A stretch of 64,000 nt of DNA, from positions 668,183-732,182 of the forward strand of contig CAVPRN010000001.1 in assembly GCA_963707935.1 (NCBI GenBank), given 5' to 3'. Position 1 is the stretch's first letter. Each line of letters opens with the position of its first letter. Positions 11,463 through 34,347 of this stretch are shown one piece after another. The position numbers were made by a program, and so were the translations under genes. The notes beneath the pieces are model-generated. The model was not told where the DNA came from and searched no databases. It worked only from the letters and a program-made list of their open reading frames with translations. The stretch comes from an uncultured Acidobacteriota bacterium. GTDB taxonomy: Bacteria > Acidobacteriota > Thermoanaerobaculia > UBA5066 > Gp7-AA6.

Positions 11463-12658
11463 CTAGGGCGGCGTTGGGAGGACGGTGGCGCGGCGCCTTT
11501 CTCCTGCCGGCGGCGATCCTCGCCGCGGCGGCGGGCGGGGCCTGCGGGAAGCGAGGGAAATCGGCGCCTCCCGCCGAGACCGTGCCGGTGCTCGCCGCGA
11601 AGGTCGAGCGGCGGGCGGTGCCGCTCGAGGTCCGCGCGATCGGCCACGTGGAGGCGCTCTCGACGGTGGCGGTGAAGACGCGCGTGGGCGGCGAGATCAC
11701 CGAGGTCGCCTTCCGCGAAGGGCAGGACGTCAAACCGGGGGACCTCCTCTTCGCGATCGACCGGCGTCCCTACGAAGCGGCGCTCTCGGAGGTTCGCGCC
11801 CGGCTCGAGCGCGACCGCGCGCTCGCGAAGAACGCCGAGGAGAGCGCGGCGCGCTACGCCGAGCTCGTCAAGAAGGACTTCGTCACGCCGCAGCAGTACG
11901 ACGAGATGAAGGCGAATTCCGCCGCCGCGCAGGCGACGGTGCGCGCGGACGAAGCGGCGATGAGGACGGCGGAGCTGAATCTCGCGTACTGTCGCATCGC
12001 ATCCCCAATCGCGGGACGCACCGGGAGCATCCTCGTCCACGGCGGGAACATCCTGAAGGACAACGACGACCGCGCCCTCGTGACGATCAACCAGATCCGG
12101 CCGATCGCGGTCTCCTTCACCGTCCCGGAGGGCTCGCTCGAAGCGATCCGCTCGCGCTTCCGCGCGGGCGAGAAGCTCGAGGTCCGCGCGATACCGTCCT
12201 CGGGCGCCGCGCCCGAGGTGGCGCCGGCCGGGGCTGCCCCCGCGGAGGAGTCGGCGTCCCCCGCGAAGGACCTGGAGGTGGGCCAGCTCTCGTTCGTGGA
12301 CAACGCGGTGGACAGCGCGACCGGCACGATCCGGCTGAAGGCGAGCTTCGCGAATCCGTCCGGCGCGCTCTGGCCGGGACAGTTCGTCAACGTCGTTCTC
12401 GCCCTCTTGACCGATCCGAACGCGGTCGTGATACCGACACAGGCGCTGCAGAACGGGCAGCAGGGCCAGTTCGTGTTCGTCGTCAAGAGCGACCTGACCG
12501 TCGAGCCGCGGCCGGTGACCGTCGCGCGCACGCAGGGCGCCTACGCGGTCATCGCCAGGGGGCTCGAGCCCGAGGAGCGCGTCGTGACGGACGGGCAGCT
12601 CCGTCTGGCGCCCGGGTCGAAAGTGGAGATCAAGCCGGAGGGGGAGGTGCGCTCGTGA
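11459..12658 (+). CDS. RND efflux periplasmic adaptor (MdtA-like)
   Basis: IASPIAGRTG, FVDNAVDSATGTIRLKA, LWPGQFVNV, VVTDGQLRL. Confidence 0.92.
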   Translation: MTRAALGGRWRGAFLLPAAILAAAAGGACGKRGKSAPPAETVPVLAAKVERRAVPLEVRAIGHVEALSTVAVKTRVGGEITEVAFREGQDVKPGDLLFAIDRRPYEAALSEVRARLERDRALAKNAEESAARYAELVKKDFVTPQQYDEMKANSAAAQATVRADEAAMRTAELNLAYCRIASPIAGRTGSILVHGGNILKDNDDRALVTINQIRPIAVSFTVPEGSLEAIRSRFRAGEKLEVRAIPSSGAAPEVAPAGAAPAEESASPAKDLEVGQLSFVDNAVDSATGTIRLKASFANPSGALWPGQFVNVVLALLTDPNAVVIPTQALQNGQQGQFVFVVKSDLTVEPRPVTVARTQGAYAVIARGLEPEERVVTDGQLRLAPGSKVEIKPEGEVRS

Positions 12659-15600
12659 ATCTGTCGGAGCTCTTCATCCGCCGCCCCGTCGCGACGACCC
12701 TCGTGATGGTCGGGCTCCTCCTGTTCGGCATCATGGCGTACCGGCTGCTCCCGATTTCGGACCTGCCGAACGTGGACTTTCCGACGCTCCAGGTCTCGGC
12801 GACTCTCCCGGGCGCCTCTCCGGAGACGATGGCCGCTTCGGTCGCCACACCGCTCGAGCGCCAGTTCTCGACGATCGCCGGGCTCGACTCGATGACCTCG
12901 ACCTCGATGCTCGGCTCCACACAGATCACGCTGCAGTTCACGCTCTCGCGCAACCTCGACGCCGCGGCGCAGGACGTCCAGTCGGCGATCGCCGCCTCGG
13001 CCAGGCAGCTGCCGCCGAACATGCCGGCGCCCCCCTCCTATCAGAAGGTCAACCCGGCCGATTCCCCGATCCTCTACCTCTCGCTCGTCTCGGACACGCT
13101 GCCGCTCTCGACCCTGGACGAGTACGGCCAGACCATGATGGGCCAGCGCATCTCGACGGTCTCCGGGGTCGCGCAGGTGCTCGTGTACGGATCGCAGAAG
13201 TACGCGGTGCGCATCCAGCTCGACCCGCGCGCGCTCGCCTCGCGCGGGATCGGGATCGACGAAGCCGCCGCGTCCGTCCGCGCCGCGAACGTCAACCTGC
13301 CGACGGGGACCCTCTACGGCCGGCACCAGGCCTTCACCGTCGAGACCAACGGTCAGTTGACGCGCGCCGAGAGCTACGGCCCGCTCGTCGTCGCCTACCG
13401 CAACGGCTCCCCGGTGCGCCTCCAGGACGTCGGCCGGGCGCTCGACTCGGTCGAGAACGACAAGGTCGCGGCGTGGAGCGTGAACAGCAAGGGGTCGTCC
13501 CGCACGATCACGCTCGCGATCCAGAAGCAGCCGGGCACCAACACGGTCGAAGTCGTGGACCGGATCCGGCAGCTCCTCCCCACCTTCGAGAAGCAGCTGC
13601 CCGCCTCGGCGAGGCTTCGGGTCCGGTTCGACCGGTCGGTCTCGATCCGGGAATCGGTCGACGACGTCAAGTTCACGCTCCTGCTGACGCTCTGCCTCGT
13701 CGTGCTCGTGATCTTCCTCTTCCTGCGCAACCTCTCGGCGACGGTGATCCCGAGCCTCGCGCTGCCCCTGTCGCTCGTCGGAACCTTCGCGGTCATGTAC
13801 GGGCTCGGATACAGCCTCGACAACCTGTCGCTCATGGCGCTGACGCTGTGCGTCGGCTTCGTCGTGGACGACGCGATCGTCGTGCTCGAGAACATCGTGC
13901 GCCACATGGAGCTCGGGGAGAAGCCTTTCGAGGCGGCGCTGAAAGGGGCGAAGGAGATCGGCTTCACGATCATCTCGATGACGATCTCGCTCGCGGCGGT
14001 CTTCATCCCGGTTCTCTTCATGGGCGGGATCGTCGGCCGCCTCTTCCGCGAGTTCTCGGTCACGATCGCGGCGGCGATCCTCATCTCGGGGTTCGTGTCG
14101 CTGTCGCTCACGCCCATGCTCTGCAGCCGCTTCCTGCGGCCGGAGCACGATCGCACGCGCGGCCACGGGCGCGTCTACATGGCGCTCGAGCGGGTCTTCG
14201 ACGGCTCGCTCGCTTTCTACGAGAGGACGCTGCGCTGGACGCTCGGACGGAAGCGCGCCGTGATGGTCTTCTCGGCGCTCATCCTGGCGGCGACGGCGTG
14301 GCTCTTCGTCCGGATGCCGAAGGGCTTCCTGCCGAGCGAGGACAACGGCAGCGTCTTCGGGTTCACCGAGGGGGCGCAGGGGATCTCGTATCGAGGCGAT
14401 GGTCGAGAAGCAGAAGCAGGTGGCGGCGATCCTGGGCCAGGACCCGAACGTCCAGACCTTCATGTCCTCGATCGGAATGCGGGGAGGCTCGAATCAAGGG
14501 ATCGTCTTCGCGACGTTGAAGCCGCGGCGCGAGCGCGACCAGTCGCCCGACGACATCATCCAGAAGCTCCGGCCGCAGCTGGCGAAGGTGACGGGCATGC
14601 GGGTCTTCCTCCAGAACCCTCCGCCGATCCGGATCGGCGGCAGCCTGACCAAGAGCCAGTACCAGTTCACGCTGCAGGGAGCCGACACGACGGAGCTCTA
14701 CCGGATCGCTCCCGTCCTCGAGAGCAAGATGCGGGACCTGCCCGGCCTCCAGGACGTCACGAGCGACCTGCAGCTGCAAGAACCCGCAGGTTCGAGTCGA
14801 GATCGACCGGGACCGCGCCGCGGCGTTCGGCGTCACGCCGGAGCGGATCGAGGACGCGCTCTACACGGCCTACGGCTCCCGCCAGATCTCGACGATCTAC
14901 GCCCCCAACAACCAGTACCAGGTCATCATGGAGCTCGCGCCCGAGTACCAGCGCGACCCGTCGGCGCTGTCGCTCCTCTACGTGCGGTCGCGATGTCGGG
15001 CGAGCTCGTGCCGCTCGCGGGCCTGGCGAGGTTCACGCAGAGCACGGGGCCGCTGTCGGTCAAGCACCTCGGCCAGCTCCCCGCGGTCACGATCTCCTTC
15101 AACCTGCGGCCCGGGACGTCGCTCGGCGAGGCGGTGACGGCGGTCGAGAAGGTGGCGAAGCAGACACTGCCGGCCACGATCGCGACGAGCTTCCAGGGGA
15201 CGGCGCAGGCGTTCCAGTCTTCGACGCGCGGCCTCGGGATGCTGCTCCTGATGGCGGTGCTCGTGATCTACCTCGTGCTCGGCGATCCTCTACGAGAGCT
15301 TCATCCACCCGCTGACGATCCTGTCGGCGCTGCCGTTCGCGGGCTTCGGCGCGCTCGTGACGCTCCTGATCTTCGGCGTCGAGGTCTCGATCTACGCGTT
15401 CGTCGGGATCATCCTGCTGGTCGGCCTCGTCAAGAAGAACGGCATCATGATGGTCGACTTCGCGCTCGAGGCGCAGCGCGTCGCACGGCAAGAACGCCGG
15501 AAGACGCGATCTACGAGGCGTGCCTCGTGCGGTTCCGGCCGATCATGATGACGACGATGGCGGCCCTGATGGGCACGCTCCCGATCGCGCTCGGCTTCGG

Positions 15601-15835
15601 CGCGGGCGCCGAGTCGCGGCGGCCGCTGGGCCTCGCGGTCGTCGGCGGCCTTCTCTTCTCCCAGATGCTGACGCTCTACGTGACGCCGGTCTTCTACATC
15701 TACATGGACCGGCTGCAGCAGCGGATCGGCCGCGGGAAGAGGAAGCGGCCGCACGCCGAGCCCGGGCGAATCGACGCCGAGGCCGGCGAGTCCCGCCGGC
15801 CCGCCGCCGCCGCCCTGCGCTCCGTCGAAAGCTAG
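12655..15835 (+). CDS. RND efflux permease (MdtB/C-like), split by about five apparent frameshifts
   Basis: GTG start [14 protein letters not shown]; [33 protein letters not shown]; frame breaks near 14390, 14780, 14990, 15285, 15490. Confidence 0.9.
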
Positions 15836-15855
15836 CGGCGTTCCCCGAGGGTGCG

Positions 15856-16012
15856 GGGGCACGGGGTCAACCGTGCACTCCTGCGCTTTTTGGGGACATC
15901 GGCACTTCCCCGCCACGCCTCGAGACAACTAAGGGGCACGGGGTCAACCGTGCACTCCTGCGCTTTTTGGGGACATCGGCACTCTTCCACTCACCACGCC
16001 TCGAGACAACTA
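15856..16012 (+). repeat. Two tandem ~77-bp units, each carrying the 31-bp end sequence of the RAYT element
   Basis: Units start at 15856 and 15933; GGGGTCAACCGTGCACTCCTGCGCTTTTTGG at 15863 and 15940. Confidence 0.95.
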
Positions 16013-16038
16013 GGGGGTGAGATCCCCGGAGGACTTGC

Positions 16039-16995
16039 TTGCCGCGTCCACTGAGGCTCGAGTTCGAAGGCGCGGTCTATCACGTTGTCGCTCGCGGCAA
16101 CGACCGGCGGACCATCTTTCTCGACGACTGGGACCGCGAGACCTATCTCGACAGGCTGGCGAGCTGTCGGGCCCGCTTCGGCTTCTTCGTCTACGCGTTC
16201 TGCCTCATGGACAACCACGTCCATCTGGTTCTCGAGCGTGGACCCGACACGCTCTCTCGAATCATGCTGACCCTTCAGTCCTTCTACGGCCAGCGCTTCA
16301 ACAGGCGCCACGATCGGGTGGGGCACCTCTTTCAGGGCCGCTACAAGGCCTTTCTGGTCGAGAAGGATCGATACCTCATCGCGCTCTTGCGGTATGTGCA
16401 TTCGAATCCCCTCAAGGCCGGTCTAGTGGCGCGCGCAGAGCACTATCGGTGGTCAAGCGACCGCTTCTATCGAACGGGGAAGGGCCCCCACTGGTTGGAT
16501 CTCGACCGGGCGCTCCGGCTCCTGGGACGGACCAGATCGGAGGCGCTTCGGAGATACCGACAGTTGATGGGAGACGGCTCCGATGACTTCTACGACAAGG
16601 CCCCCGCGGTCGCGAACACGATCAAGGGAGACGACGAGTTTGTGCGCCGAGTTCTGTCCCGGGCGGAAGCGGCTCAGCCGACGTCAACCGGTTGGACGAT
16701 CGAAGCAATCGCCGCGGCGGCCGCTGCCGTCGAAGGACTTTCGATCGATCAACTGAAGCGGCGGGGACAGCGGGCGCGTCCCTCGCGCGCACGTGCGATT
16801 GCCGCGTGTTTCGCCAGACACGAGGCGCGGATTCCGGTGTCGCGGGTCGCGAAGTACTTCGGCAGAGATGAATCGACGCTGATCCGCACGGTCCGGAAGG
16901 TCGAGGATGCGCTGGAGACGGACGAACCGCTCCGAGCGCGCCTGCGGGAGCTGGCGAAGCGGCTGAAGCCAAAAAGCGCAGGAGTGCACGGTTGA
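16039..16995 (+). mobile_element. REP-associated HUH tyrosine transposase (RAYT/Y1_Tnp) with C-terminal HTH extension
   Basis: YHVVARGN, CLMDNHVHLVL (HUH), GHLFQGRYK, RYVHSNPLKAG, YRWSS; C-terminal ARAIAA..SRVAKYFGRDESTL resembles a DnaA-C/TrpR-like HTH; GGAGG RBS. Confidence 0.92.
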
Positions 16996-16999
16996 CCCC
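16969..16999 (-). repeat. Right 31-bp inverted repeat of the RAYT element (contains the stop codon)
   Basis: CCAAAAAGCGCAGGAGTGCACGGTTGACCCC is the exact reverse complement of 15863-15893. Confidence 0.95.
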
Positions 17000-17006
17000 T
17001 AGCGTT

Positions 17007-18390
17007 CTAGCGTTTTCGGACGGCGAGGGCGTAGAAGAGGAGGCCCACGAGGCCGAAACCGGCGGCGCCGCCGCCGACCTGGACGAAGAAGGCGGTCTTG
17101 TCGGGCGTGTCGGCGGGCGGGATGAGCGCGAGCACGATCGCGACGAGCGTCGTCAGGAAGCCCAGGCCGTTCCAGAAGAGGCTCCCCGCGCGCCCGCCCG
17201 GCACCGGGACCGCGCCCGGCGTCGCCGCGATCTGGCGCTCGAGGCGGATCGCCGCCGCGAACATGTAGAGAAACGGGATGAAGTAGACGATCAGCGTGGC
17301 GTTGACGAGCTTCAAGTACGCCGCCTTGACGGTCGAGCCCTGGGTCGCGGCCAGGATGAAGAGGACCGAGAGGACGCCCTGGACGAGGAGGGCCACGTAG
17401 GGGGTCTTCCATCGCGGATGCGTCCGCGCGAAGACGGGCGGCAGGTACTTGTCCAGGCCCCCCACGAAGAGGAGACACGCCGAGCCGACGAGCCACGCCC
17501 CGAGACCTCCGAGGCCCGCGAGTGTGAGGAGGATCGCCGTCGGCGGCCCGAGCCAGGGAAGGCCCACGCGCGCGCCCGCCTTCGTGACCGCCTGCAGGAC
17601 GCCCGAGATGATCGACGTCTCGTTGGGCGGGAGCGCCCACAGCAGCGAGAGGGTGCCCAGGAGATAGCAGGCCGCGATCGTCAGTCCGGAGATCACGATC
17701 GCCCGCGGGAAGGTCTTCTTCGGCTCGACGACCTCATCCGGCGATCGTCGGCGCGAGCTCCAACCCTGCGAAGCCGAAGCAGAGGTTCGCGAAGAAGAGC
17801 ACCGTCGAGAGCCTCCCGAAGTCCGGCAGGAGCGAGGCCGCGGGAATCGGCGTGGCGGAGCCGAACCGCAGTAGCGCCAGGACCCCGACGACGAGCAGGA
17901 CGACCGACGGCACCCACTGCGCGAGGCCGCCGATGTTCTGGACCCAGCGCCCGGTCTTCATGCCGACGATGTTGAAGCCGAGCGCGACGGCGAGGAGCAC
18001 GATCGAGGCGATCCCGGTGAAGGCGGCGCTCTGCTCCAGGGCCGCGAACCGGAGCCCGAAGACGTACAGCGCAAACACGACGGTTGAGAGCGCGAGCGTG
18101 GGGAAGTAGAGGACGTTGTTTGCCCAGTAGAGCCAGCCGGCCAGAAACCCGTGCTTCGGCCCGAAGGCGCGCGTCGTCCAGACGTAGAGGCCGCCCTCCT
18201 CCGGAATCGCGGTCGCGAGCGCGGTGACCGCGAAGCCCTGCGGAATGAAGAACGCGACCGCGGCGAGCACCCAGAGCGAGAGCGAAGACGGGCCGTTGGC
18301 CGCCGCGAGCGCGACCCAGCGCATTCCGACGATCGCCGCGACGTTGAAGAGGACGATGTCGCGGGTCTTGAGAGCGCGCTCGAGGGCCAT
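17007..18390 (-). CDS. APC-family amino acid permease (frameshift near 17740)
   Basis: ALATAIPEEGGLYVW, FGFAGLEL, FARTHPRWKTPYVAL; many TM segments over two ORF pieces. Confidence 0.88.
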
Positions 18391-34286: not shown

Positions 34287-34347
34287 GGGGTCAACCGTGC
34301 ACTCCTGCGCTTCTCTGAAAAAAGCGCAACATTGCACGGTTGACCCC
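34287..34347. repeat. 61-bp palindromic element made of two RAYT end repeats in inverted orientation (REPIN/MITE-like)
   Basis: GGGGTCAACCGTGCACTCCTGCGCTT..AAGCGCAACATTGCACGGTTGACCCC between convergent genes. Confidence 0.92.

Follow-up and report, generated by a model that had tools for sequence, protein, structure and literature searches.

The locus examined here occupies positions 15856-16999 of a 64,000-nt stretch of DNA that is referred to below as the window. Its gene, an ORF of 318 aa (16039..16995, + strand), has a TTG start codon, a TGA stop codon, and a GGAGG sequence (16028-16032, +) located 6 nt 5' of the start. A 31-mer, GGGGTCAACCGTGCACTCCTGCGCTTTTTGG, occurs in the window with 0 mismatches at 15863-15893 (+), 15940-15970 (+), and 16969-16999 (-), and a fourth copy with 3 mismatches is found at 34287-34317; the mean chance expectation for this sequence in the window is 0.00 (100 dinucleotide shuffles). 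A repeat search matched both inverted pairs over 31/31 nt with 100% complementarity. The sequence-only reading that preceded this analysis had described a perfect 31-bp inverted repeat bracketing the gene, which is correct, but it missed the second upstream copy at 15940-15970. The left end is tandemly duplicated, which accounts for this second copy: 15856-15906 and 15933-15983 are 100% identical and 15913-15936 and 15994-16017 are 96% identical, with a spacing of 77/81 nt between the units. The first unit (15856..15932, +, 77 nt) contains the inverted-repeat copy at 15863-15893, while its tandem duplicate (15933..16017, +) contains the copy at 15940-15970. The right repeat (16969..16999, -) extends over the final eight codons of the ORF and its TGA stop (...PKSAGVHG*), just as the earlier reading had observed, and its TGACCCC thus supplies the stop codon. 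That reading had also stated that the 31-mer is not a hairpin and has no GTAG. Indeed, GTAG is absent from the 31-mer, which folds weakly at best as single-stranded DNA (-2.4 kcal/mol), and the element ends plus flanks are no more stably folded than shuffled sequence (z -0.4 to -1.2). No Rfam matches were found in 15000-18000 and no sites were returned by a sigma-70-type promoter scan.

The encoded protein matches Y1_Tnp in Pfam (PF01797, E 1.2e-14) over a nuclease domain at residues 12-123 (16072..16407, +), with the HUH motif at H60-V-H62 and the catalytic tyrosine at Y119. When the window protein is aligned with 43 homologues (44 sequences in total), H60, H62, Y119, N123, P124, W138, and S139 are all invariant. 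This alignment was also used to build an AlphaFold2 model with a mean pLDDT of 89.2. Its best PDB match is the E. coli TnpA-REP protein bound to the REP hairpin (4er8_A, E 4.5e-6, target-normalised TM 0.74), followed by the ISDra2, IS200, and IS608 transposases (2xma, 2vjv, and others) at E 5e-5 to 2e-3. Among the NCBIfam families, REP_Tyr_transpos scored 79.7 bits against a cut-off of 80, just 0.3 bits short, and transpos_IS200 scored 21.3 bits against a cut-off of 55. The C-terminal tail (residues 223-313; 16705..16977, +) matches Bac_DnaA_C (PF08299) at E 1.1e-6 and 29 bits, which is under the 31.5-bit cut-off, and HTH_23 at E 0.089. In the model, residues ~223-313 superpose on DnaA domain IV (3pvp_B, TM 0.86, rmsd 2.0; 1j1v_A, TM 0.85, rmsd 1.7), and a separate structure search with residues 223-313 retrieved 3pvp_A at E 8.3e-4. 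As judged from its sequence and predicted structure, the protein is a RAYT-like single-tyrosine HUH nuclease with a C-terminal DnaA-domain-IV-like HTH, which agrees with the RAYT-like HUH transposase and extra C-terminal HTH recognized earlier from the letters of the sequence. Homodimer prediction with two copies of the protein gave no answer (score 0.00) and is evidence in neither direction. The gene is intact, though the assembly appears to have frame breaks elsewhere.

Relation to TIRtrons and other Y1 transposase systems

IS200/IS605 elements have subterminal hairpins at unlike ends and do not have inverted repeats. Their transposases are described as obligate dimers that read these subterminal hairpins (PMC3479197). 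The window protein shares the fold of the IS608 and ISDra2 TnpA proteins (E 5e-5 to 2e-3) and, as in IS200/IS605, there is no visible target-site duplication around the repeat doublets described below, whereas end hairpins are lacking here and the transpos_IS200 score is far from its cut-off. The E. coli TnpA-REP protein (PDB 4er8; Messing et al. 2012, PMC3479197), to which the N-terminal domain is structurally most similar, has the same HUH and tyrosine. TnpA-REP is reported to be a monomer that binds the REP hairpin together with a 5' GTAG in single-stranded DNA and that ends in a 25-aa autoinhibitory tail, in place of which the window protein has a ~60-residue linker and a 90-residue DnaA-like domain.

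A much closer counterpart was described by Di Nocera, De Gregorio, and Rocco (2013, PMC3733652), who introduced the name "TIRtrons" for RAYT-like genes between long inverted repeats and the name "TIRYT" for the proteins they encode. According to the available portion of that text, the repeats start with a GGGGWSAS motif, in the main group, and overlap the 5' or 3' end of the gene, the repeat families are moderately abundant and occur as singles, dimers, and groups, and there is a sharply defined Acidobacteria group. The locus in the window likewise combines a RAYT-like Y1 HUH protein that is longer than RAYTs and has a Bac_DnaA_C-like tail with non-palindromic GGGGWSAS-type inverted repeats, the right one overlapping the 3' end of the gene, and with a moderately abundant repeat family found as singles, dimers, and groups; the published Acidobacteria group is a further point of agreement. 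The sequence GGGGTCAA agrees with the published motif at 7/8 positions, the sole difference being position 8, which is A here (as in 25/94 of the aligned arms considered below) rather than the S of the consensus. Quentin et al. (2018, PMC6006769) subsequently placed 20/26 TIRtron examples in TnpA subclass 2.1, and the tails of subgroup 2.1.2 were assigned to Bac_DnaA_C, HTH_23, or HTH_28. The C-terminal extension of the window protein is of this same Bac_DnaA_C/HTH_23-like type (PF08299 below cut-off; TM 0.85-0.86 to DnaA domain IV). The parts of that paper available to us report that no REP-like repeats were found near subclass 2.1 genes, whereas the repeat is dispersed ~30 times in the present genome. 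The box structure, empty sites, and asymmetric doublets presented below do not appear in the available text of either TIRtron description (PMC3733652, PMC6006769). In the literature searched, the name TIRYT is found in 3 papers that correspond to 2 works, and there was no experimental or biochemical study of any TIRYT and no later functional study.

We consider it highly probable that 15856-16999 is a TIRtron, i.e. a 1.1-kb mobile unit with one TIRYT gene between 31-nt inverted repeats headed GGGGTCA. Because the class was named in 2013, the discovery is an ordinary one, and the present copy is a further, ordinary member with an intact gene and perfect ends. The sequence-only reading had instead proposed a distinct new class of HUH element. 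The layout is indeed unlike that of IS200/IS605 and the characterized RAYTs (as far as described in PMC3479197), but layout, motif, and domain make-up are all already in print for the TIRYTs and TIRtrons of 2013 (PMC3733652) and the TnpA subclass 2.1 of 2018 (PMC6006769), which leaves next to no chance that the class had gone unrecognized.

Homologues, repeat ends, and empty sites

TIRYTs are widespread, with matches in 32/41 related genomes (a count that includes the source genome, G000, and three unpublished genomes) at 1-12 divergent copies each, and a best same-genus identity of 55%. The nearest named public homologues come from Thermoanaerobaculia and other Acidobacteriota MAGs, while related genes are also present in other phyla. 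We surveyed the flanking repeats of 117 loci from published genomes (L011-L130 minus L018, L023, and L026), taking as full-length any match that spans from residue <=15 to residue >=285. There were 51 such loci, two of which had too little flank, leaving 49 that include the window's own locus; the 66 loci dropped from the survey were mostly shorter RAYT-like genes without the tail. The best flanking inverted repeat starts with GGGGTCA in 48/49 full-length loci, with L046 as the exception, and the check suggested earlier, whether each homologue has its own GGGGTC..GACCCC inverted repeat, thus comes out positive. The right-end TGACCCC provides the gene's stop codon (TGA) in 25/49 loci. Among 94 anchored arms, there is almost no variation at positions 1-7, R is found at position 8 and C at position 10, and TG is present both at positions 12-13 (90 and 78 arms) and at positions 20-21 (69 and 71 arms), while the remaining positions vary between elements. 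From this alignment, TIRYT repeats look bipartite, with an invariant head followed by two TG-anchored boxes ~8 nt apart. Boxes 1 and 2 of the same repeat are more alike than boxes of different families (2.84/5 vs 2.31/5; permutation p ~0.002, 25 families), a modest signal from families that are kin of one another and not independent. By inspection, recognition-helix residues covary with the box sequence within clades only, which is not separable from descent.

In the window, 1186 nt separate the convergent RND-pump and permease genes between which the element sits. The corresponding gap is just 65, 72, and 291 nt in the same-genus genomes G007, G004, and G002, respectively, and the G007 flanks are ~86% identical to those of the window; at the other six same-genus loci compared, the permease side alone aligned. 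As judged from these alignments, the three genomes have empty sites at the element's position, which is what the sequence-only reading had suggested looking for in relatives. The GC3 of the TIRYT gene is 0.77, compared to 0.94 for the adjacent permease gene and 0.94 for the genome's sole paralogue, which suggests a fairly recent arrival of the TIRYT gene in this genome. In addition, the G024 genome has two copies that are 88.9% identical over 1014 nt at different places, with homology ending at the outer ends of the repeats; one of them has a 194-nt tandem duplicate of its left end.

These results also bear upon whether the inverted repeats might be operator or terminator sites for autoregulation by the HTH protein, rather than transposition ends. 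A terminator-like scan found four sites, three of which are the repeat itself (shuffle mean 0.9), and what it detects is a weak 5-bp stem followed by TTTTT inside each repeat; furthermore, DnaA domain IV binds duplex DNA. On the other hand, the outer edge of the repeats is exactly where element copies cease to be homologous, the empty sites lack the unit in its entirety, the repeat also occurs far from any such gene as head-out doublets, and the catalytic HUH and tyrosine residues are invariant. We regard regulatory sites as a very improbable explanation and favor transposition ends.

Several other features of these loci were observed as well. Tandem duplication of the left end (or its head) is present in ~7/49 homologue loci besides 15856-16017 of the window (L112:256-448, as well as L022, L025, L114, L117, L030, and L056), and may be a by-product of transposition chemistry. 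A cluster of TIRYT genes and fragments lies at G024:C1:742210-746019 (L118, L111), where a fragment of residues 38-101 is found directly upstream of the left end of an intact element, which suggests insertion into or beside older copies. At G010:C2:810526-815189 and G008:C12:164326-168882, a different TIRYT (53% identity, different repeat) is located ~3 kb from the same permease orthologue, which may reflect a regional hot spot or a coincidence. It should be noted that the RND-pump (window 11485-15835) and permease (17007-18390) genes are each split over more than one reading frame, and that the permease open frame is 316 aa here vs 473-589 aa in relatives. The assembly has 6 contigs and a marker completeness of 66%, and the split frames suggest assembly indel errors or pseudogenes.

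Dispersed arms and doublets

The genome assembly (G000) comprises 4.29 Mb in 6 contigs (C1-C6) at 69% G+C and contains two Y1_Tnp genes, namely the TIRYT gene of the window and a paralogue at 35% identity with degenerate ends. The paralogue (G000:C1:416432-417394, -) is TIRYT-like with a host-like GC3 of 0.94, and only a short, degenerate GGGGTC(T/A)GACCC is left of its ends; the right-end remnant is just 3' of the stop codon and resembles the inner part of the window repeat. The sequence-only reading had proposed a genome-wide search with the 31-mer. Here, a search of the whole genome with the 16-mer repeat head yielded 32 matches at <=2 mismatches, while the same 16-mer reversed, as a control, yielded 2. 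Some matches with 2 mismatches are doubtful, and the genome holds ~30 arms. These include 10 doublets of 61-71 nt, all of which are head-out (GGGGTCA...TGACCCC) and none tail-out. One of them is located in the window itself (34287..34347, 61 nt), just 3' of a gene's stop codon, and forms a hairpin of -25.6 kcal/mol (z -9.3). As single strands, the doublets form hairpins with energies of -15.4 to -28.9 kcal/mol and z-scores of -3.5 to -9.3, in which 13-16 bp of perfect outer stem are followed by an internal loop and then by a short inner stem that pairs poorly. In 8/10 doublets, one arm is canonical, with a GTGC(A/G)CTCC box and then TG, while the other has a substitution cluster at positions 14-20; of the remaining two, one has a single-base difference between its arms and the other has no canonical arm. 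Since the full element has two canonical (perfect) arms, the doublets are not simple internal deletions of it. A search for compensatory changes between the arms of the doublets found the same change in both arms in one doublet and uncompensated head mismatches in three, and pairing is therefore unsupported by covariation.

At <=1 mismatch, the 16-mer has 26 matches in this genome, 0 in 7/11 same-genus genomes including G007, and 1-4 in G002, G004, and G006, with some also in the unpublished genome G005; the closest relative compared has none of the repeat arms. Where one doublet is found next to an array of GTAG-tagged REPs, G007 has 19 nt in place of 404. In the search for empty sites of other doublets, homology with G007 at the window doublet ends at the stop codon of the upstream gene and the downstream flank is not adjacent in G007; for the C4 doublet, the right flank is a multi-copy family and the left-flank match ends ~140 nt short. 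Direct reading was applied to four sites, and the element, the window doublet, and the pair of doublets at C2:91223 and C2:91992 are all intergenic; a spanning-ORF test of arm position is uninformative at 69% G+C, where long spurious ORFs abound. Repeat orientation relative to GC skew was concordant in 8 cases and discordant in 6, indicating no bias.

Such doublets raise the question of whether the locus is a domesticated system of the REPIN-RAYT type (Bertels and Rainey 2011, PMC3116915; Bertels et al. 2017, PMC5581495), in which a single-copy, vertically inherited host gene would maintain hairpin doublets without being a mobile element. As in those systems, an HUH/Tyr enzyme is flanked by a repeat that it presumably disperses, and the dispersed doublets of two inverted units form long hairpins (10 here). 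One cognate gene and one paralogue of 35% identity account for both Y1_Tnp matches in the genome, the repeat has spread mostly as hairpin-forming, REPIN-like doublets, and the REP_Tyr_transpos score is within 0.3 bits of its cut-off. What sets the locus apart, at least from the systems as described in the portions of those papers available, is that it has neither a GTAG nor a self-palindromic REP, a single unit being no palindrome, that it has an extra HTH domain, and that its copy numbers are in the tens rather than the hundreds. Moreover, neither synteny nor vertical inheritance applies to the gene here: empty sites are present in three same-genus genomes, relatives have 1-12 divergent copies with a best same-genus identity of 55%, one genome (G024) has two 89%-identical copies at different places, and GC3 is 0.77 vs 0.94 in a host gene. 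Overall, we view domestication as unlikely, though less so than the regulatory explanation considered above, and retain the mobile TIRtron as our reading of the locus.

A classical GTAG-tagged REP family is present in the same genome as well, with GTAGGGGCGGCC occurring 81 times in arrays (for example L131:1320-1460 and C6 just right of 75336), and these REPs flank neither of the two Y1_Tnp genes. At G000:C2:91223-92052 (L131:1224-2053), one doublet lies on either side of a gene that has a long leader and encodes a small RRM-type RNA-binding protein, and the second of these doublets is directly 3' of a terminator-like hairpin plus T-run. Three arms lie at C2:368898-368996, a place that in G007 and G003 is taken up by a segment of ~900-925 nt bearing a gene. 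The G007 segment contains an open frame for what by eye is a small secreted protein, and the arms may mark a deletion junction at repeats.

Proposed mode of end recognition

HUH Y1 enzymes cut single-stranded DNA, and DnaA domain IV is a duplex-binding domain. In the mechanism that we propose, the HUH/Tyr domain would nick and rejoin single-stranded DNA either at the invariant GGGGTCA/TGACCCC termini or beside them, and the element-specific inner repeat, with its two TG-anchored boxes ~8 nt apart, would be read as a duplex by the DnaA-like HTH. Inverted repeats place the repeat itself and its complementary sequence at opposite ends of any one strand, and it is thus only on a duplex that both ends could be read by a single recognition surface. 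This duplex would be either ordinary double-stranded DNA or a stem that arises from pairing of the two ends of one strand, which would give a panhandle for the full element and a hairpin for the doublets. With the ends paired, the two junctions between element and flank would be next to each other at the base of the stem, where the invariant head is likely the cutting site, and the two boxes are likely the sites of the DnaA-like tail. The doublets would then be non-autonomous, REPIN-like passengers of the TIRYT enzyme. Pairing of the ends, or duplex binding by the HTH, had already been put forward from the sequence as the means of end recognition; this seems reasonable to us, and the hairpin-forming doublets would be compatible with it. 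The data presented here fit single-strand pairing and duplex binding alike.

We are quite confident of the TIRYT identity and general mode. A more specific version is far more tentative, and we think it rather doubtful as a whole: the ends would be bipartite, with a GGGGTCA head at the HUH cut and two ~8-nt boxes read by the HTH on a paired-ends duplex; the 61-63-nt doublets would be the minimal natural substrate and the equivalent of a REPIN; and the regular asymmetry (8/10) would mark the active strand or protect the palindrome from cleavage. The asymmetric doublets (8/10) and the poorly paired inner stem count against the proposed explanation, as do the Bac_DnaA_C match below cut-off and the published statement that the repeat is unlike DnaA boxes (PMC6006769, available portion). 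The absent orientation bias counts against it as well, as a lagging-strand single-strand mechanism might have produced one. If true, the paired-ends two-box model would explain the use of inverted repeats by an HUH single-strand nuclease. The locus provides a clean natural test set, with an intact gene and perfect ends, ten hairpin doublets, single arms, and empty sites in relatives, that bears on how such a nuclease uses inverted repeats and on what the DnaA-like domain reads.

The sequences just outside the repeats were inspected as well. The flanks of the full element have AACGCTAG-like repeats that are too imperfect to call a target-site duplication, and no target-site duplication was visible by eye in the flanks of 6 doublets. 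CTAG abuts the head in 3/32 genome arms by script, with a fourth by eye; its genome-wide frequency is only 2.4e-4 per position. Across the 49 homologue loci, 4/93 arms have CTAG next to the head, including the right arm of the window element. This CTAG may be a target or part of one end. Lastly, the 7 nt outside the head, GGGGCAC, are common to the left end of the element (15856-15862) and the canonical arm of a distant doublet (C2:91285-91291), and the mobilized unit may accordingly reach a few bases past the inverted repeat on one side.
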